A stretch of 64,000 nucleotides of DNA, taken from IMG/VR virus record IMGVR_UViG_2872147552_000001. The stretch is one strand, 5' to 3'. The stretch is from a virus (lineage: Duplodnaviria; Heunggongvirae; Uroviricota; Caudoviricetes). Each line of letters starts with the position of its first letter. Position 1 is the stretch's first letter. This document shows, piece by piece, positions 8,156 through 41,159 of this stretch. The notes beneath the pieces were generated by a model. The model was not told the origin of the DNA. It saw only the letters and a program-made list of their open reading frames with translations, and ran no database searches. A program made the translations under genes and the position numbers.

Positions 8156-8249
8156 AGATCCCTCTAAAACACACAGAGCGCGTCCATGCGCTCTAAAACA
8201 ACTTGTTTACTGAATCTGCTAACCAACTTGTTTTCTGGGGTGTTTAATT

Positions 8250-22820: not shown

Positions 22821-22892
22821 TCCGAAACAATTTGTTTTCTTATGTGGTTTATTATCTCCATCAACAAAAGGCAGAAAACAAATTGTTTTAGG
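22821..22892 (-). promoter_or_regulatory. complete early promoter module (two AAACAA-N-TTGTTT palindromes flanking GATAAT)
   Basis: Best-preserved copy of the module; the host-like insert begins immediately upstream. Confidence 0.5.
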
Positions 22893-22972
22893 TACTGTGT
22901 AAATCAGAAGGGATTGTGTCTATATGAAAATGCCCGGCGTGTTGCCGGGCATTGCGAAGAGAGGTTGTTTAA

Positions 22973-25006
22973 TTACTTAACCTGGTGGCCAGGTTTAGCA
23001 CCAGCATCCGGGCTTAACAGGAAGATATCTTTCCCGCCGGGGCCAGCAGCCATCACCATGCCTTCAGAGATACCGAAGCGCATTTTACGTGGTGCCAGGT
23101 TAGCCACCATAATGGTGTGACGACCAATCAGTGCCTGTGGATCTGGATAAGCGGAACGGATGCCTGAGAAGACATTACGCTTTTCACCACCGAGATCCAG
23201 CGTCAGGCGAAGCAGTTTGTCAGAACCTTCTACAAACTCTGCGTTTTCAATCAGCGCCACGCGCAGGTCAACTTTGGCGAAGTCGTCAAAGGTGATAGTT
23301 TCCTGAATCGGGTCGTCAGCCAGTGGGCCAGTTACCGGTGCGGCTGTGGCTTTCACTTCTTCTTTGGATGCTTCCACCAGTGCTTCAACCTGCTTCATAT
23401 CGATGCGGTTATACAGTGCCTTGAACGGATTTACTTTATGGCCCAGCAGCGGTTGCTGGATACCATCCCAGGTCAGTTCTGTATTCAGGAATGCTTCTGC
23501 ACGTTCAGTCAGTTTCGGCAGTACCGGCTTCAGGTACGTCATCAGCACGCGGAACAGGTTAATGCCCATAGAGCAAATCGCCTGCAGATCGGCATCGCGA
23601 CCTTCCTGCTTCGCCACCACCCACGGAGCCTGTTCATCGACATAGCGGTTAGCCAGGTCAGCCAATGCCATGATTTCACGGATAGCTTTACCAAATTCGC
23701 GGCTTTCCCATGCTTCGCCAATCACTTCAGCGGCATCAGTAAAGGTTTTGTACAGTTGCGGGTCAGCCAGTTCGCTTGCCAGCACGCCGTCAAAACGCTT
23801 GTTTATAAAGCCTGCATTACGGGAGGCCAGGTTAACCACTTTGTTCACGATATCGGCATTCACGCGCTGAACGAAATCCTCCAGGTTGAGATCGATATCA
23901 TCAATGCGCGAAGAGAGTTTCGCAGTGTAGTAGTAACGCAGGCTGTCGGCGTCAAAATGATTCAGCCAGGTGCTGGCTTTAATAAAGGTGCCGCGAGACT
24001 TGGACATCTTCGCGCCGTTCACCGTCACATAGCCGTGAACAAACAGGTTGGTCGGCTTGCGGAAGTTGCTGCCTTCCAGCATGGCAGGCCAGAACAGGCT
24101 GTGGAAGTAAACAATATCTTTACCGATGAAGTGGTACAGCTCGGCGGTGGAGTCTTTCTTCCAGTATTCATCGAAGCTGGTGGTATCGCCGCGCTTGTCG
24201 CACAGATTCTTGAAGGAACCCATGTAGCCAATCGGCGCGTCCAGCCAGACGTAGAAATATTTGCCCGGCGCGTCCGGAATTTCAAAACCGAAGTAAGGCG
24301 CATCGCGGGAGATATCCCACTGTTGCAGGCCGGATTCAAACCATTCCTGCATTTTGTTCGCCACCTGCTCCTGCAACGCGCCGCTGCGGGTCCATGCCTG
24401 CAACATTTCGCTGAAAGAAGGCAGATCAAAGAAGAAGTGTTCGGAATCACGCATTACCGGGGTAGCGCCAGAAACCACCGATTTCGGCTCGATCAATTCA
24501 GTCGGGCTATATGTTGCGCCGCAGACTTCACAGTTATCGCCGTATTGATCTGGCGCTTTACATTTCGGGCAGGTGCCTTTTACAAAACGATCCGGCAGGA
24601 ACATGCCTTTTTCCGGGTCGTACAACTGAGAGATAGTGCGGTTTTTAATAAAACCGTTCTCTTTCAGGCGAGTATAGATAAGCTCAGACAACTGACGGTT
24701 CTCTTCGCTGTGCGTCGAGTGATAGTTGTCATAGCTGATGTTAAAGCCTGCGAAATCAGTCTGGTGTTCCTGACTCATTTCGCCAATCATCTGCTCCGGT
24801 GTGATACCAAGCTGCTGCGCTTTCAGCATGATCGGCGTACCGTGGGCATCGTCGGCACAGATGAAATTAACCTCGTGGCCGCGCATTCGCTGGTAACGAA
24901 CCCAGACATCAGCCTGGATGTGCTCCAGCATATGGCCGAGGTGGATTGAGCCGTTAGCGTACGGCAGCGCGCACGTCACCAGAATTTTCTTCGCGACTTG
25001 GGTCAT
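22973..25006 (-). CDS. metG: methionyl-tRNA synthetase (chromosomal-type, near-identical to E. coli MetG as recalled)
   Basis: 677-aa product from [26 protein letters not shown] with HIGH and KMSKS motifs and the C-terminal tRNA-binding domain; track ORF extends 43 codons upstream of the true ATG at 25006; own hairpin terminator at 22931-22957. Confidence 0.95.
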
Positions 25007-25163
25007 AGTAGGCATTACTTCTTTGTAGTGAAAAGGGGCTTGATAGTAACAAAATGGCCTTATGTCTGCCATGTGATAACAGCATTTCTCATAAATGATT
25101 AAATGTCGTAGCTGGAGTACACTACAAGGCGACAATTGCGCAAATTAAAATAAAGGAGACGGG

Positions 25164-26264
25164 ATGAGCGAGTCCAAATCGCCGGATGCCCTGAGAGCAA
25201 TGGTAGCCGGTACGCTGGCTAATTTTCAGCACCCAACCCTGAAACACAACCTGACTACGCTTAAAGCGTTACACCATGTTGCGTTGATGGATGACACACT
25301 GCATGTCGAACTAATCATGCCTTTCGTGTGGAATAAGCCTTTTGAAGACCTGAAAGAGCAATGTAGTGGTGATCTGCTCCGTATCACTGGCGCAAAGGCT
25401 ATTGACTGGAAGCTGTCGTACAACATTGCCACGCTTAAGCGCGTCAAAAACCAACCAGGCATTAATGGCGTTAAGAACATTATCGCCGTCAGCTCAGGCA
25501 AGGGCGGCGTGGGTAAATCCTCCACGGCGGTAAACCTGGCACTGGCGTTGGCTGCTGAAGGTGCGAAAGTTGGTATTTTGGATGCCGATATCTATGGTCC
25601 ATCAATTCCAACCATGCTGGGTGCGGAAAACCAACGTCCAACCTCACCTGACGGTACTCACATGGCACCTATCATGTCTCATGGCCTGGCAACCAACTCT
25701 ATTGGTTATCTGGTCACCGACGACAATGCAATGGTGTGGCGTGGACCGATGGCCAGCAAGGCGCTGATGCAGATGTTGCAGGAAACTCTATGGCCTGATC
25801 TGGACTATCTCGTTCTCGATATGCCGCCGGGCACTGGTGATATTCAGTTGACGCTGGCGCAGAACATTCCTGTAACTGGTGCGGTTGTGGTAACTACGCC
25901 GCAAGACATCGCGCTGATCGATGCGAAGAAAGGCATTGTGATGTTCGAAAAAGTCGAAGTGCCGGTACTGGGTATCGTCGAAAACATGAGTGTGCATATT
26001 TGCAGTAACTGCGGTCATCACGAGCCAATTTTTGGCACCGGTGGCGCACAGAAACTGGCCGAGAAATACAACACGCAGTTGTTAGGCCAAATGCCACTTC
26101 ATATCTCTCTTCGTGAAGATCTGGATAACGGAACACCAACCGTTATTAGTCGTCCAGATAGCGAATTTACGGCTATTTATCGTGACCTCGCAGATCGCGT
26201 TGCCGCCCAAATGTATTGGCAAGGTGAAGTAATACCTGGCGAAATCGCATTCCGCGCAGTGTGA
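25164..26264 (+). CDS. apbC: Fe-S cluster carrier ATPase ApbC/Mrp
   Basis: 366-aa product with deviant Walker A SSGKGGVGKSSTAVNLA and CxxC motif (ICSNCGHHEPIFG); divergent from metG exactly as in the enterobacterial chromosome; AAAGGAGA RBS. Confidence 0.95.
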   Translation: MSESKSPDALRAMVAGTLANFQHPTLKHNLTTLKALHHVALMDDTLHVELIMPFVWNKPFEDLKEQCSGDLLRITGAKAIDWKLSYNIATLKRVKNQPGINGVKNIIAVSSGKGGVGKSSTAVNLALALAAEGAKVGILDADIYGPSIPTMLGAENQRPTSPDGTHMAPIMSHGLATNSIGYLVTDDNAMVWRGPMASKALMQMLQETLWPDLDYLVLDMPPGTGDIQLTLAQNIPVTGAVVVTTPQDIALIDAKKGIVMFEKVEVPVLGIVENMSVHICSNCGHHEPIFGTGGAQKLAEKYNTQLLGQMPLHISLREDLDNGTPTVISRPDSEFTAIYRDLADRVAAQMYWQGEVIPGEIAFRAV

Positions 26265-26269
26265 TAAAA

Positions 26270-26290
26270 AGGCGGTGCATTGCACCGCCT
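26270..26290 (-). terminator. hairpin terminator shared between apbC and the UmuD'-like gene
   Basis: GGCGGTGCATTGCACCGCC stem-loop; on the minus strand it is followed by a T-run. Confidence 0.5.
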
Positions 26291-26301
26291 AATCAGTTCT
26301 C

Positions 26302-26691
26302 CTACATCACGGGACAATCATCAAACTCGCCACTTCTTGCGTCGTTGATAATGTGAGTGATCACACCAAACACGGCATTGCTGCCCGTGCATCCATCGTC
26401 ATCCTTTGGCAATGCTTCCTTCTTACCGGTTCTTAAATCCTCCAGATGCTGACGTGGGTACTTCCGGTATCTTTTTACGCGATATTCCCCATCCAGAGCG
26501 CATACAAGCAGAGAACCATCAACCGGGGTAAGCGAGGAATCGACCACCAGCAATGCACCCTGTAATATTCCCTCACGATGATGACTATCAGCTGCCCTCA
26601 TGAAGTAGGTCGCTGAAGGATGTCTAATTATCTGCTGATCAAGAGAAATACGGCTCTCAGCATAATCCGCCGCAGGAGAAGGGAAGCCCAT
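26302..26691 (-). CDS. UmuD'-like S24 peptidase-fold protein (pre-processed form, P1 HumD-like)
   Basis: Product begins MGFPSPAADY..., i.e. at the position created by RecA-mediated cleavage of UmuD; conserved Ser and Lys of the S24 dyad retained (ADSH, VKR); GAGGG RBS; strong LexA box immediately upstream. Confidence 0.65.
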   Translation of the reverse strand: MGFPSPAADYAESRISLDQQIIRHPSATYFMRAADSHHREGILQGALLVVDSSLTPVDGSLLVCALDGEYRVKRYRKYPRQHLEDLRTGKKEALPKDDDGCTGSNAVFGVITHIINDARSGEFDDCPVM

Positions 26692-26707
26692 AGCGTTTTG
26701 CCCTCAA

Positions 26708-26727
26708 TACTGTTCATTTATACAGTA
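26708..26727. promoter_or_regulatory. LexA (SOS) box TACTGTTCATTTATACAGTA
   Basis: Matches the TACTGT-N8-ACAGTA consensus; lies 17-36 nt upstream of the UmuD'-like start codon. Confidence 0.75.
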
Positions 26728-26784
26728 TACATGAAAGAAGCTCACTCAGTGCAACTGATCGGTACATAGCACCAGACAAAGGAA

Positions 26785-26847
26785 CGTTATTTTCTCGAAC
26801 AAGAAAAGGTAGAAAACAAATTGTTTAAGGCCACAACTAGTGGCCTT
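26785..26847 (-). promoter_or_regulatory. truncated early promoter module plus terminator hairpin AAGGCCACAACTAGTGGCCTT
   Basis: Near-identical to the unit at 31041-31120 down to GTTATTTTC at about 26786, where similarity stops. Confidence 0.5.
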
Positions 26848-26863
26848 AATGGAGAAGGGATGC

Positions 26864-27427
26864 TTATTGGCTATGGCTAAAAATCAAATGAGACACTTCA
26901 TTTGGTTGTAGCTCGTCAAGATCCGGGGCCACAAAACCTTTTCCAAAAGACTTCACAAGTGATTCACCAGCCGCATCATTGTCACCTATTACGCGAAAGT
27001 CATACGGCAGCATTGCCAGTTGACGACGTAATCCTGCTGAGAAAGTCGAACCTAACAGCGCCCACGAATTTCCGCCCGCGTTGTGCACTGCTGCACTTTT
27101 AAAAATCGACTCAGTTATCCATATCGGTCCATCTTTTAAAGGAAGATAGGTTCCCCATAGTAGCTGTCTGCCGTTCGCTCGTGTGAAATACCGGGCCATC
27201 TTCGGATTGCTATGCTGCTTAGGAGCGCCTGGTCTGTATGTCTGATACCCGGCCAACATCCCATCAAACCTGTATAGAGGGAACGTAACAACTCCTTCGC
27301 TTTCATCGATCCACTGTCTATATGGATGCACATCATGGCGGTAGTTACGAGTTAGCAAATGAGCTTCCAGCTTTCCATATTTGGTCATAACTTCGCATCC
27401 CTCATAACACTTCCCATTTATCACCAT
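26864..27427 (-). CDS. Toprim-domain protein (primase-like)
   Basis: Conserved glutamate segment IWITESIFKSAAV and DxD motif RVIGDNDAAGESL typical of Toprim domains. Confidence 0.45.
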   Translation of the reverse strand: MVINGKCYEGCEVMTKYGKLEAHLLTRNYRHDVHPYRQWIDESEGVVTFPLYRFDGMLAGYQTYRPGAPKQHSNPKMARYFTRANGRQLLWGTYLPLKDGPIWITESIFKSAAVHNAGGNSWALLGSTFSAGLRRQLAMLPYDFRVIGDNDAAGESLVKSFGKGFVAPDLDELQPNEVSHLIFSHSQ

Positions 27428-28217
27428 ATTTCTCCATAGCTCTTAGCCAGTAAACATGGCCACTAGGCATAGTGATGTGAGGCTCGCCAAACTCTTCTCC
27501 ATGCACATCAAAGATGTCCCCAACAGAGAATTGGGGGATTTCTACGCCGTTTTCACCTATATGCGTAATTCGTATACGTTTCGGTTGAGATTCTCCCCCT
27601 TTGAGCGAGTTGTTCACTGCTCTGGCAATCTTCTCCCGCAATTGCTGCGTTCCGTGGTACTGAACCGCAATATCCCTCAACTCATTCACCAGTTCTCGAA
27701 TCTGGTGATCTTTAAGCTCATTATTTGAGTGATGGGTAACAACTCTGGTTAATTCACCCTTGTCTTTTGCTCTTACGTATGCAGCTCTTGTGCATTCGAC
27801 CCATGTATTACCGCCTACATTAACTTCGTAGATTAGGCTGGACTTATCTGTCAATTCGGAACAAATACGGGCCGTGGTCTGGCAACTAGAGCATTCGCAG
27901 TTATCGCGGAAACCGTGATCTACCGGTCGAGAAAGAGGTTTAACTTTTTCATCCAACTTCATCACAGCATCGTGATAAGCGTTCCAGCCGTCATCTTTAC
28001 CAAGTTGATAAATCTCTGAAGGCTCCATGTAGTCTATATCGCAACCTTCTTCATCCGATCTATCTGGTCGCTTCCCTGGTAATCGCTCATAAAAACGATT
28101 TCTGTCTCGACGTTCGGCTCTCAGTGCTAACGCAAGAAGTTGCTCAAGCGAGGTATTTGCACCAGCAATAATTTCATTGAGAATATCTTCTGTGAGATCT
28201 TTCGCTACCGTGCTCAT
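27402..28217 (-). CDS. hypothetical Cys-rich protein (possible zinc-binding partner of the Toprim protein)
   Basis: 271-aa ORF with clustered cysteines (CECSSCQ ... C); overlaps downstream gene by 26 nt. Confidence 0.3.
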   Translation of the reverse strand: MSTVAKDLTEDILNEIIAGANTSLEQLLALALRAERRDRNRFYERLPGKRPDRSDEEGCDIDYMEPSEIYQLGKDDGWNAYHDAVMKLDEKVKPLSRPVDHGFRDNCECSSCQTTARICSELTDKSSLIYEVNVGGNTWVECTRAAYVRAKDKGELTRVVTHHSNNELKDHQIRELVNELRDIAVQYHGTQQLREKIARAVNNSLKGGESQPKRIRITHIGENGVEIPQFSVGDIFDVHGEEFGEPHITMPSGHVYWLRAMEKYGDKWEVL

Positions 28218-28597
28218 TTATCTCTCTCAGTATGTTGCGATGGCGTAAATTTGACGACATCAAATATTTTGGATGGCATCAACTTTATCCGCGAGCTTAG
28301 TTCGGCTCTTCTCTGTAATGCGGTTAATAATGTTTTCGTTCTGACGCCTTCGTGTATCCTCATCCCTGGCACAAGAACTACATCGCAGGGGAGATGCTCA
28401 GGTGACAAATCATTTTGGGCATCGCTAATCAGTCGTGTAATCTCTCTTTCAAGCCGACCGCCTAGCTCTGTTTTAGTGCAATGTTCTGACCAATCACCAG
28501 CCTCAAGCAGCGCGAGAATGCTTAAAATATCGTCCAATAGATCAGTGGTATTATCGACTTCCTTCTGAAGCTCACCGGCTACTGATTTATGCATCAT
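28214..28597 (-). CDS. hypothetical protein
   Basis: 127-aa ORF translationally coupled to its neighbours. Confidence 0.35.
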   Translation of the reverse strand: MMHKSVAGELQKEVDNTTDLLDDILSILALLEAGDWSEHCTKTELGGRLEREITRLISDAQNDLSPEHLPCDVVLVPGMRIHEGVRTKTLLTALQRRAELSSRIKLMPSKIFDVVKFTPSQHTERDK

Positions 28598-29247
28598 TCG
28601 TCATCCTCATCCGAGTCATCCTCATCACAGGATGAGAGTAGTGGGTTAGTCATTCGCCCTACTTGAGTGGCGTAGCCACGCCGACAGAGATTGCGCAGCA
28701 CACTGTATATTTCGAACATCTCGGTTCGTTCATCGCCAACATCAAGCTCAGATGCTATAGCGTGGCATTCAGTCGCGAGAGCCGATATTTTCTGAAATAA
28801 CTCTGCATTATTCACTGTTCGACTCCTGCGGCGTTCTGGTAGTGACATCCAGTGTGTGACATTGCTAATCAGACCATATTCATTAGTTTGAGGATGGTTG
28901 CCGTTAGCGTCTCCGTATTTAAGACTCTCCATAAAGCCATAATGCCTATCACCATTAACGCTCACAAAGCCGTAATAAGCAGGTATAACGCCGATCTCAC
29001 ACGTAACCAGTAAAGGAAAACTAGTTCTCCAATTTAGCTCGCCAATTACAGGCATTCGCTCACTACAGCTTATCCAACCATCCTTAGATGCGGCTGTATT
29101 GGCATAGGCCTTACGGTGCTTCTGTAACTCTGCTGCAATCGCTCTCACGACTTCAACTGGTGCCCTTGCAGCAAACTCAATGTTGGTGATCAGCTCATTA
29201 AGATATTTCTCGCTTGGGTAGCATTTCTTATTGTTAACGGTGGTCAT
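28594..29247 (-). CDS. hypothetical protein with acidic C-terminal tail
   Basis: 217-aa ORF ending CDEDDSDEDDE. Confidence 0.35.
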   Translation of the reverse strand: MTTVNNKKCYPSEKYLNELITNIEFAARAPVEVVRAIAAELQKHRKAYANTAASKDGWISCSERMPVIGELNWRTSFPLLVTCEIGVIPAYYGFVSVNGDRHYGFMESLKYGDANGNHPQTNEYGLISNVTHWMSLPERRRSRTVNNAELFQKISALATECHAIASELDVGDERTEMFEIYSVLRNLCRRGYATQVGRMTNPLLSSCDEDDSDEDDE

Positions 29248-29432
29248 TAGGCAGCTCTCTCAACAACAAGCAATTCGTCGTAGTCATAATCAGTTTCGGA
29301 ACCATCCGTACCGAACAGAGTCACTTTGTCATTTTCCATCCAAAAAGATTTAACCGCACATTGTTGACCTTTAGATGTTATGAGCACATCACCAGGGATT
29401 ACGTCTTCAGCGCGAACCTCTAGTGTTCTCAT
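29247..29432 (-). CDS. hypothetical small protein
   Basis: 61-aa ORF, start and stop overlap adjacent genes. Confidence 0.3.
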   Translation of the reverse strand: MRTLEVRAEDVIPGDVLITSKGQQCAVKSFWMENDKVTLFGTDGSETDYDYDELLVVERAA

Positions 29433-29851
29433 CGTGCTGCCCCCTCTTTGGTGAAAATGCCTGCTGCAATGCTGTTTATGATGCTGTCAGTGCATGGAGT
29501 AGAAAGCTGGGCATCTCCAGCAATTTTCATGACCTCAACATCCGCATATCGAATACCGAGGTGTATCAGACCGGCTATACCTGACTTAAGTCGAACATTT
29601 TCCATAAACAGATCCTTTTCCCGCTGTTTAACGGTCTCCAGCTCAACACGCAACTTCTCAATTTCGGCAGCCATGTAGTAACCAACCATAGCGAAAGTGG
29701 CGAAAGGGTAGTCCGAATCATCAGGAGATACGGAGGCCATTAGCAGACCATCGTGCATGTTCTGGCTTCCATCAGTGATAGATACCGCATAAGAATCGCT
29801 GGTTTCCCGCTTATACAATACGACGACCGGGTTCTTGATTTTCTCTCTCAT
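29429..29851 (-). CDS. hypothetical protein
   Basis: 140-aa ORF in operon context. Confidence 0.35.
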   Translation of the reverse strand: MREKIKNPVVVLYKRETSDSYAVSITDGSQNMHDGLLMASVSPDDSDYPFATFAMVGYYMAAEIEKLRVELETVKQREKDLFMENVRLKSGIAGLIHLGIRYADVEVMKIAGDAQLSTPCTDSIINSIAAGIFTKEGAAR

Positions 29852-30405
29852 TACGATGCCTCTAACTTGTCTAACTCTTTCAGCCCTTCACGTACCGCGT
29901 TCACAATGCGTTCCAGATACTGGTATTTCGGGTTTGGTACCGTTGGCCAGTCGGCATACCACGGATCATCACCAAAGAGATTCAGTAGTTTGTTACCGAC
30001 GCCGAAACAGCAGCAGCTTTCTTTTACGTCATCGGCGTTTTCCGCCTCGTCCCACATTTCGCGAGCCAGTACGGCGTCTATTTCTCTCTCTCTTCGTAAC
30101 TTTATGATTTCTGACTTCACGAAAAGCAGATTTGCATCGTTGTCATCGTCGACCGTGCTTCGCAGTTGAGGGTCGAAATAGCCGATTAGATACTCGTTGC
30201 TGACCCGCTTAATGAACGTCTGCACATCATCACCGCCCATAGCAAACCAAGCCGCAGTCCACGCTTTTCCGTAGCAGGTGATGGTGATTCTTCCCTTACC
30301 AGGTTCGTAGTTTTCAATCATCACTCGAACCGGATCGAGGCGTTCCAGATCCGTCAGCACAAAGGAAAGAACATCTATTTTTTCGATCTTCATGCAGCCT
30401 CCCAC
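29851..30405 (-). CDS. hypothetical protein
   Basis: 184-aa ORF in operon context. Confidence 0.35.
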   Translation of the reverse strand: MGGCMKIEKIDVLSFVLTDLERLDPVRVMIENYEPGKGRITITCYGKAWTAAWFAMGGDDVQTFIKRVSNEYLIGYFDPQLRSTVDDDNDANLLFVKSEIIKLRREREIDAVLAREMWDEAENADDVKESCCCFGVGNKLLNLFGDDPWYADWPTVPNPKYQYLERIVNAVREGLKELDKLEAS

Positions 30406-31031
30406 GCGCTCCAGATCAGCGATTTGTGTTTTTCATAACGTTTGATGTGTACCGGTTTCAGAAGCGCAATACCTTCAGTGACTTTCGCCATTGCGCTTAA
30501 TAACAACGGGTGTTCTATACCTATCCTCTCCATGTACTCGACAACATCAGCGTTGGCACCAATCTCCTTCCCGTTAAAAAGTACGTCCAGCATCAGCTCT
30601 TTCTCTGCAAGGTAGATAGCTGAAAACTCAGGATCGCGACTCACGATAGAAGAGGTATTGTCGAGCAGGTCAGCCAGCTTGATCATGCGCGTCTGCATGT
30701 CGAGATTTTGCTCCAGCTCCCGGACATTGATGATGAAACGCTGTATTCGATTGCCGTCTTCTGGCCTTGCAATGTTGGTCAGAGCCTGAACCATTTCAGC
30801 TACGCGCTCACCGAAGTGATCACGAACCATCTCTATGGTTACATGGGTGTCTTCGACCACATCATGCAGAAGCGCCGCGATTTGCATCTCCACGGTTCCG
30901 TCATGCAATGCAACAATCTCTCGGACAGCAACCGGGTGGTTGATGTAGTCTTCGCCGGTATATTTTCTTTTCTGACCAACGCCACCATGAGCGCCAGCGG
31001 CGAACATATGAGCTTCGGAAATACTAGACAT
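30390..31031 (-). CDS. HD-domain small alarmone hydrolase (SpoT/Mesh1-type (p)ppGpp hydrolase domain)
   Basis: Motifs HPVAV, AALLHDVVEDT, FGERVAEMVQALT and IKLADLLDN match the RelA/SpoT hydrolase domain; 213 aa with no synthetase domain. Confidence 0.75.
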   Translation of the reverse strand: MSSISEAHMFAAGAHGGVGQKRKYTGEDYINHPVAVREIVALHDGTVEMQIAALLHDVVEDTHVTIEMVRDHFGERVAEMVQALTNIARPEDGNRIQRFIINVRELEQNLDMQTRMIKLADLLDNTSSIVSRDPEFSAIYLAEKELMLDVLFNGKEIGANADVVEYMERIGIEHPLLLSAMAKVTEGIALLKPVHIKRYEKHKSLIWSAWEAA

Positions 31032-31040
31032 TCTTAACTC

Positions 31041-31120
31041 CGTTGTTTTCTAGTTGTGGTTATTTTCACAAATAAGAAAAGGTAGAAAACAATTTATTTA
31101 AGGCCACAACTTATGGCCTT
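31041..31120 (-). promoter_or_regulatory. early promoter/operator module plus terminator hairpin AAGGCCACAACTTATGGCCTT
   Basis: Hairpin, inverted TTGTTTTCT/AGAAAACAA elements and -10-like sequence upstream of the HD hydrolase start. Confidence 0.45.
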
Positions 31121-31150
31121 TATTTATTCATGCCGAAGGATTTGTAGCGT

Positions 31151-40601: not shown

Positions 40602-41159
40602 TTACACAATTTCAGAGGGTAATTTAAAAAATCCGTACTTATTACGTGCCTTAAAGAAGCATTGCATCATTAAGTTTGTGTCATATAAGGCACTATGTGC
40701 TTTGGCATGATCGTATATAAAGCCAAGAGAGAAGGCCAACTCTTCAAGGCGGGGACGTTTACCGTCTTCTGTGGCCCACAATCCCGATAACATAGTATCT
40801 ATAACAGGAACTTCTGGCAGTCTTACTCCATACCCTGAAAACTCGTGTCGAATAAATGGTATATCAAATGCTTCGCCGTTATGAGCAACCCACACACTAC
40901 ATGCCCCCATATAAGCGCCAATTTCGCTGGCATGATTTGACAACAAAGGTTCAGCTGCGAGCTGTTCCAATGAAATGCCATGAACGGCTTGAGCTTTCGG
41001 ATCTATGTTTCTGCGAGGGTTAAAACGCATCTCCAGACTATCAATATGTCTCTGTGTCTCCAGTTCATAGCGGGTAATTGCGATTTCAATAATTTTATGA
41101 CCAGCAAGGAAATCCAGTCCCGTAGACTCGATATCGATGCCTGCAACAATCGTTGTCAT
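40602..41159 (-). CDS. DnaQ-like 3'-5' exonuclease (DEDDh)
   Basis: Exo I DIESTG, Exo II HNGEAFDIPF, Exo III HSALYD. Confidence 0.75.
   Translation of the reverse strand: MTTIVAGIDIESTGLDFLAGHKIIEIAITRYELETQRHIDSLEMRFNPRRNIDPKAQAVHGISLEQLAAEPLLSNHASEIGAYMGACSVWVAHNGEAFDIPFIRHEFSGYGVRLPEVPVIDTMLSGLWATEDGKRPRLEELAFSLGFIYDHAKAHSALYDTNLMMQCFFKARNKYGFFKLPSEIV

Follow-up and report, generated by a model that had tools for sequence, protein, structure and literature searches.

A humD gene with a predicted LexA operator on an SSU5-like phage-plasmid of E. coli, a probable orthologue of P1 humD

The DNA analysed here, a stretch of 64,000 nucleotides that we refer to as the window, represents an SSU5-like E. 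coli phage-plasmid. Where aligned, it matches phage Cyrano (pLF82) at 98-99% identity over most of its length, and it resembles ~110-kb non-mobilizable E. coli plasmids as well as the 'phages' CMS-2020a and PhiR41_1. Cells contain ~5.5 copies of Cyrano, a siphovirus phage-plasmid, and ciprofloxacin induces it 39-fold (PMC9928086). The SSU5-like element encodes its own DnaE-like polymerase (Pol III alpha) and epsilon-like exonuclease, together with a RecA/UvsX-like recombinase and a gp32-like SSB; some of these phage-plasmids carry blaCTX-M. At the locus under study, a short gene, humD, is preceded by a LexA (SOS) box and followed by a hairpin that resembles an intrinsic terminator (Table 1). 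Upstream lies a co-directional toprim/ea-like moron region and downstream, in convergent orientation, are apbC and metG, whereas humD of P1 has a divergent lxr gene and, downstream, phd-doc as its neighbours.

Table 1. Features of the humD locus, in positions of the window
Feature	Position	Strand	Remarks
humD CDS	26302..26691	-	129 aa; stop codon TAG at 26302-26304; natively truncated UmuD' analogue
Codons of the C-terminal tail SGEFDDCPVM (residues 120-129)	26305..26334	-	no counterpart in UmuD
Shine-Dalgarno-like GAGGG	26701..26705	-	9 nt before the ATG; GAGG conserved in aligned upstream regions
LexA (SOS) box TACTGTATAAATGAACAGTA	26708..26727	.	16 nt 5' of the ATG; exact match, same as the P1 site
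Candidate -10, TATACT	26724..26729	-	shares 4 nt with the LexA box; nearly invariant in 40 upstream sequences
Candidate -35, TTGCAC	26749..26754	-	19 nt upstream of the -10
Intrinsic-terminator-like hairpin	26270..26290	-	9-bp stem with 7 GC, then TTTTT; terminator scan
Terminator-like hairpin closing the upstream toprim gene unit	26825..26849	-	terminator scan

According to the ORF list, the product of humD begins with MGFPSPAADYAESRISLD. A sequence-only reading of this DNA had placed that start, MGFPSPAADY, at the very point where cleavage of UmuD produces UmuD', and the alignments agree: with HMMER, residue 2 corresponds to residue 1 of UmuD' as crystallised (1UMU, E=6.7e-23) and to Gly25 of full-length UmuD (8GMT_B), which places the HumD start at the UmuD cleavage point, Cys24/Gly25, and at the first residue of UmuD'. 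The N-terminal arm with the Cys/Ala-Gly cleavage site that characterizes UmuD proper is absent from the protein, which begins at the cleavage-site glycine. The same methionine opens the ORF in 80 related IMG/VR loci, and 77 of these 80 have a stop codon in frame, 2-4 codons ahead of the ATG; therefore, there is no hidden N-terminal arm. Among 120 database homologues, 106 start with MGFPSP, and the longer ones are evident over-extensions that have MGFPSP internally.

The window protein is 100% identical to CYRAN_98 of Cyrano. Its alignment with P1 HumD (YP_006569.1) is gapless at 91% amino acid identity, and the two proteins agree in length, in the MGFPSP start and in the C-terminal tail; identity to E. 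coli UmuD' is 42%. Curated profile models separate the two families. The window protein scores 219.8 bits with NCBIfam NF051876, the HumD equivalog model (cutoff 120), in a match that covers residues 1-129 and all 129 profile positions, and it falls below the cutoff of the UmuD model NF007621 (87 bits versus 110). E. coli UmuD behaves in the reverse manner: it passes the UmuD model and fails the HumD model (98.7 bits, below the cutoff of 120). The protein was also assigned to PHROG 811 (UmuD-like), whereas with the LexA profile model it reaches 27 bits versus a cutoff of 111. The sole domain that Pfam detects in the 129 residues is the Peptidase_S24 core, with no helix-turn-helix DNA-binding domain of the LexA/CI type. 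By these comparisons, the gene belongs to the known HumD family and is neither UmuD proper nor a LexA-type repressor. The HumD-like identity proposed by the sequence-only reading thus withstood both the alignments to P1 HumD and to UmuD and the search against UmuD-family profiles, and the LexA box discussed below, which is identical to that of P1, adds to it.

The best match in PDB, by sequence and by fold, is UmuD'. An alignment restricted to 96 close homologues led to an AlphaFold model too poor for use (pLDDT 41.5); the AF2 model in use was built from a diverse alignment (pLDDT 71) and is closest to UmuD/UmuD' structures (1UMU, 1AY9, and 1I4V; TM 0.75), with the LexA C-domains next. The N-terminal arm and beta-core of UmuD' are conserved, and counterparts of Ser60 and Lys97 are present. 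On the other hand, the window protein is made from its own start codon rather than by proteolysis, and it has a 4-residue insertion (residues 101-104) and a 10-residue C-terminal tail that E. coli UmuD' lacks. Compared with P1 humD, the gene has a dN/dS of 0.055, which indicates a functional gene under strong purifying selection, and a dS of 0.77, which indicates an old split; a recent transfer of humD from P1 was rejected on the basis of this dS value. Taken as a whole, the gene is very probably the SSU5-like phage-plasmid orthologue of P1 humD, encoding a LexA-controlled Pol V cofactor in the UmuD' form.

The LexA box reads TACTGTTCATTTATACAGTA on the plus strand and TACTGTATAAATGAACAGTA on the gene strand, has 17 of 20 positions in common with the idealised palindrome TACTGTATATATATACAGTA, and over all of its 20 nt is identical to the LexA site annotated for P1 humD; the two loci are set apart by an indel of 3 nt that separates box and ribosome-binding site by different distances. 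It is the sole perfect TACTG-N10-CAGTA within the window, where 0.02 such boxes would be expected by chance (2 of 100 shuffles contained one). Across 80 related loci the box is exact in 75 and has one mismatch in the remaining 5, with CTG/CAG unbroken. In 40 distinct upstream sequences, its arms are constant and its central 10 nt are variable. SSU5-like elements have at least three unrelated versions of the region upstream of humD, each with a box 16-19 nt from the ATG; in the Cyrano version the box is TACTGTATGTGTATACAGTA. At the level of sequence, therefore, humD carries the mark of SOS regulation, and the box is a predicted LexA operator.

A strict consensus scan for sigma-70 promoters on the humD strand (positions 26150-27000, 16-18 nt spacer) found none. 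The candidate hexamers in Table 1 have an atypical spacer of 19 nt; however, the near-invariance of TATACT includes the 2 nt that lie outside the LexA box, and either TTGCAC or TTTCAC is kept at the -35 position in P1-type and window-type upstream regions despite their diverged flanks. The two hexamers are likely the sigma-70 promoter of humD, with the LexA box overlapping its -10 element. Because the box and the -10 have 4 nt in common, bound LexA would occlude the -10. In the P1 annotation, a predicted promoter, PhumD, is placed ~480 bp upstream, away from the LexA box. The sequence-only reading had described a near-consensus SOS box overlapping the promoter; the box itself proved to be perfect, and the overlap with a promoter is plausible rather than proven. 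The hairpin that closes the toprim gene unit belongs to a repeated intergenic unit and suggests that humD is transcribed as a separate unit; from its sequence context, humD appears to be an autonomous SOS-controlled moron. In LF82/Cyrano lysogens, apbC (CYRAN_99) is listed among the genes expressed above background, and humD (CYRAN_98) is not listed (PMC9928086), which is consistent with repression of humD.

Whether humD is native to the element or was acquired together with the adjacent host-like segment had been left unresolved by the sequence-only reading, and the boundaries of homology settle this matter. Homology to the E. coli chromosome (~90%) is limited to positions 22972-26257/26260, from the stop codon of metG to that of apbC, whereas P1-type homology extends from 26303 to ~26742. 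The 42-bp spacer between the end of apbC and the humD module contains the terminator hairpin, which begins 12 nt past the humD stop, between humD and the convergent apbC, and lies outside both regions of homology. In the E. coli chromosomal matches no umuD is found beside apbC, and SSU5 itself lacks humD, metG, apbC, and the toprim gene. Since the chromosomal homology stops before the P1-type homology starts, humD did not arrive together with the host-like segment, and co-acquisition with metG-apbC was rejected. Since SSU5 has none of the three genes, the trio of humD, metG, and apbC is a trait of the family's E. coli lineage.

The module common with P1, P7, D6, SJ46, and RCS47 (86-88% nucleotide identity) comprises just the coding sequence and ~50 nt upstream, including the LexA box; over exactly the coding sequence and operator, the window and P1 are 86% identical. 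On the other side of the gene, the alignment of the window with Cyrano is interrupted precisely at the start codon of humD, which is also where a hypervariable lambdoid ea-type moron region starts. PLSDB contains 171 plasmids with the apbC-humD junction and ~480 P1-like plasmids with humD alone; among 5,426 complete E. coli genomes, 209 have the block. P1 and the window have in common an E. coli phage-plasmid as carrier and a humD gene with no umuC, and they differ in the type of carrier, which is an SSU5-like siphovirus phage-plasmid in the window.

More distant relatives have the same architecture. The homologues in the linear phage-plasmids N15 (gp26) and phiKO2 (gp23) and in phages HK140, HK639, and BTP1 are 60-71% identical to the window protein and have its truncated form, MGFPSP start, and GEFDDCPV tail; with Aeromonas and Hafnia phage homologues considered along with those of N15, phiKO2, and BTP1, identity spans 44-71% and the start is either MGFPSP or MGMPKFASP. 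A LexA box, shared by the window, N15, phiKO2, and BTP1, lies 14-44 nt before the start in these three and in the Aeromonas and Hafnia phages; in phiKO2 it is an annotated LexA site common to gp23 and a divergent dinI, and none was found within 130 nt of the HK140 homologue. These N15, phiKO2, lambdoid, and P22-like homologues differ from the window protein in having Thr in place of the nucleophile Ser, and their genes are located at a tail-fibre/int or par boundary, with dinI as a neighbour in phiKO2 and HK140; BTP1 has a frameshifted copy. By published description, MucA, ImpA, RumA, and SamA are likewise SOS-regulated accessory subunits of the UmuD family borne on mobile elements; however, they are described as keeping the N-terminal arm, requiring RecA*-mediated cleavage, and being encoded in an operon with a UmuC-like polymerase (PMC7092418).

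Unlike E. coli umuD, humD of the window has no umuC operon partner. The claim of the sequence-only reading that such a partner is missing was confirmed and extended: tblastn searches with E. coli UmuC revealed no homologue in the window (best E=4.4), tblastn gave none in the complete phage-plasmid Cyrano (best E=0.46), and no umuC or other Y-family polymerase partner was found in the window, Cyrano, or SSU5.

In E. coli, RecA*-mediated conversion of UmuD to UmuD' is slow, and UmuD'2C is Pol V. P1 HumD reportedly substitutes for UmuD' functionally in SOS mutagenesis (McLenigan and colleagues, 1999, J Bacteriol 181:7005), and its RefSeq note states that it 'functionally complements E. coli UmuD''; HumD has also been described as already activated UmuD (PMC7092418). 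By analogy with the experiments on P1 HumD, to which the window protein is 91% identical, we infer that it can function with UmuC. In an undamaged lysogen, host LexA would keep humD off. Upon DNA damage, LexA cleavage would derepress humD alongside host umuDC, and HumD dimers would then bind host UmuC to form a Pol V-like translesion polymerase, skipping the wait for RecA*-dependent processing of UmuD. Lesion bypass and SOS mutagenesis may thereby become available early, both for the damaged host and for the phage-plasmid at its roughly five copies, during induction of the element.

The S24 domain raises the question of whether HumD might instead act as a serine protease or as a LexA/CI-like regulator, cleaving itself or, for example, host UmuD in trans. 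Ser36 and Lys73 of the window protein do align with UmuD Ser60 and Lys97, 100 of 102 close representatives of the family retain the lysine, Pfam reports an S24 match, and RefSeq records include the generic labels 'S24 family peptidase' and 'LexA family transcriptional regulator'. However, the 129 residues hold the S24 core with no DNA-binding domain, the arm that carries the cleavage site is missing, and the nucleophile-site motif GDSM (G[DE]SM in UmuD) has degenerated to ADSH. Of the 102 close representatives, 58 have Ser at the nucleophile position, 42 have Thr, and 2 have Ala; at 50% clustering, 7 of the 41 natively truncated representatives have Ser and 18 have Lys, compared with 37 and 38, respectively, of the 43 full-length UmuD-type representatives, which retain G[DE]SM. 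The Aeromonas and Hafnia phage homologues have neither residue and keep the rest of the protein. This distribution indicates that the dyad decays once the arm has been removed genetically, so in the window protein it is probably vestigial, and a proteolytic or regulatory role is very improbable. The sequence-only reading had the dyad region retained; the two residues are indeed present in this protein, within an ADSH motif, and truncated homologues at large do not conserve the dyad; functional retention of the dyad across the family is unsupported. Decay of the gene as a whole, with the ORF a 5'-truncated remnant of umuDC and the SOS box a relic or a chance occurrence, has next to no likelihood. 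Although both the 5' end of umuD and umuC are missing, the location is within a mosaic accessory region, and BTP1 shows that a relative can be frameshifted, the low dN/dS speaks against a remnant, as do a length and start conserved in hundreds of elements, the gene's own ribosome-binding site, LexA box, and terminator, the retention of that box across unrelated upstream sequences, and the existence of a curated equivalog model for the family. We consider the pseudogene reading effectively refuted.

The C-terminal tail is harder to accommodate, as a simple UmuD' mimic leaves it without explanation. Its columns, GEFDDCPV[MI], are 92-100% conserved in the 102 representatives (E122, 100%; F123, 99%; D124, 100%), and the tail is also found in the N15, phiKO2, Aeromonas, and Hafnia phage homologues; GEFDDTPF and EFHDNLPF are other versions of it. 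The pattern E[FW]DDxPx followed by a hydrophobic C-terminal residue is confined to natively truncated homologues, where it is kept even at 44-49% identity, and it occurs in none of the full-length UmuD-type representatives listed. Residues 123-129 have pLDDT below 50 in the AF2 model, and the tail is predicted to be disordered. UmuD and UmuD' bind RecA filaments and Pol III subunits, and DinI, whose gene adjoins the phiKO2 and HK140 homologues, modulates RecA filaments. HumD could then serve mainly to modulate DNA transactions of the host and phage-plasmid during SOS, by titrating UmuD/UmuC, by binding RecA filaments or Pol III, or by docking on or competing for SSB-interacting proteins through its acidic tail, with replication or induction of the element as the beneficiary, rather than as a Pol V cofactor. 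In favour of this, the tail, and not the catalytic residues, is what truncated homologues conserve, and the element's own Pol III alpha/epsilon, RecA/UvsX-like, and gp32-like SSB proteins make other HumD partners possible. The tail also resembles the SSB-Ct peptide MDFDDDIPF (PMC10164576). The resemblance amounts to 3 identities in 8 residues, however, and in most members the terminal residue is Met, Ile, or Leu and not Phe. Mimicry of the SSB tip, by which HumD might engage the protein partners of SSB, through docking or in competition, or might deliver UmuC to gaps coated with SSB, is a long shot. A mainly modulatory role as such is also improbable: P1 HumD, with the same tail, is the protein said to replace UmuD' in SOS mutagenesis, and the window protein most resembles UmuD in the N-terminal arm and the core, the parts that are employed in UmuD'2C.

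We therefore return to a Pol V cofactor as the preferred function of HumD. As such the gene is already known, and conceptually it offers nothing beyond the 1999 work on P1; the fresh leads are modest, namely a dyad that decays after genetic truncation and a tail that resembles the SSB tip. If the tail does mimic the SSB tip, this would give HumD a function beyond skipping UmuD processing and would account for a tail that persists as the protease dyad degenerates. The occurrence of the gene has broader meaning: on the preferred reading, a pre-activated, LexA-controlled UmuD' cofactor is standard cargo of a second, very common family of E. coli phage-plasmids, in addition to the P1-like plasmids and N15-like elements that also carry humD. 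Phage-plasmids could thus, on a wide scale, let error-prone lesion bypass set in sooner in the bacteria that carry them, which would be relevant to stress-induced mutagenesis and, with blaCTX-M present on some of these elements, to the evolution of antibiotic resistance.

Proteins that start at the UmuD' position by gene design, with no N-terminal arm, differ from full-length UmuD-type proteins at the S24 catalytic dyad. In the family alignment, the serine is present in 7 of 41 natively truncated UmuD' analogues vs 37 of 43 full-length UmuD-type representatives, and the lysine in 18 of 41 vs 38 of 43, respectively; judged from this alignment, the dyad is in decay in the truncated analogues. 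At its C-terminus, HumD carries a tail, SGEFDDCPVM, that UmuD does not have. Distant truncated homologues retain its pattern, E[FW]DDxPx followed by a hydrophobic residue at the carboxyl end (GEFDDTPF, EWDDLPVI, and EFDDNPCM), and by sequence the tail resembles the C-terminal tip of SSB, the peptide MDFDDDIPF (PMC10164576).

Genes of the humD type also occur in other phages. In phages phiKO2 and HK140, the humD-type gene is adjacent to a dinI homologue, a pairing that would constitute a two-gene SOS moron that targets RecA filaments and Pol V. A single annotated LexA site is common to both genes in phiKO2. In Salmonella phage BTP1, the open reading frame of the humD homologue stops after 28 aa and the tblastn match is split in two, while a perfect LexA box is retained 17 nt upstream; this homologue appears to be a recent pseudogene.

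On one side of humD lies a host-like metG-apbC pair (window 22972-26260), the edges of which coincide exactly with the two stop codons and which shares ~90% identity with the chromosomal locus of E. coli. In 171 PLSDB plasmids, the joint between the apbC end and humD is fixed. Among 5,426 complete E. coli genomes, 209 contain the block; it is absent from SSU5, the family namesake. Expression of apbC (CYRAN_99) has been reported in lysogens of E. coli LF82 (PMC9928086), the host of the near-identical phage-plasmid Cyrano. On the other side, homology between the window and Cyrano ends exactly at the humD ATG, where a hypervariable region begins. This region is bounded by repeated intergenic units of ~65 nt, each consisting of a hairpin and an AAACAA motif, that are also present in SSU5 and are likely module-exchange junctions. 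Its toprim open reading frame aligns solely with the central part of PHROG 849, the profile for phage DNA primase (positions 143-333 of 435). Only some relatives carry this frame, so its probable identity is that of a primase fragment, either stand-alone or truncated.

Features in the window and in related phage records
Feature	Location	Remarks
HumD Ser36 codon	window 26584-26586	
HumD Lys73 codon	window 26473-26475	
HumD C-terminal tail (residues 120-129)	window 26305-26334	conserved; disorder predicted
Hypervariable region	window 26692-31057	4.4 kb; lambdoid ea22-, DUF551-, and toprim-type genes
Repeated intergenic units	window 22848-22912, 26786-26850, 31059-31123	
'Toprim domain' ORF	window 26864-27427	187 aa; upstream of humD
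AAACAAnTTGTTTTC matches, left part	window 8194-8235, 17568, 18053, 18801, 19704, 20191, 21383, 22825-22890	
AAACAAnTTGTTTTC matches, right part	window 26812-26826, 31085, 35627, 36354, 46571, 58301	
Second near-consensus LexA box	Cyrano (L084) 41044-41063	outside window
humD-type gene and dinI homologue	phiKO2 (L090) 1181-1884	opposite strands
humD-type gene and dinI homologue	HK140 (L091) 910-1890	opposite strands
humD homologue, interrupted	BTP1 (L092) 1501-1873	

The palindrome AAACAAnTTGTTTTC has 21 matches in the window with no more than one mismatch, vs 0.08 expected. The majority lie 16-55 nt upstream of gene starts on the minus strand; the match adjoining the upstream terminator is 121 nt from humD, on its upstream side. 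AAACAAnTTGTTTTC may act as an operator or promoter element scattered across the phage-plasmid, a candidate parallel to the dispersed C1 operators of P1. The second LexA box of Cyrano, TACTGTTTACTTATACAGTG, is located directly upstream of the integrase gene and near a putative repressor. Ciprofloxacin induction of Cyrano has been reported (PMC9928086), and this box may be relevant to that response.
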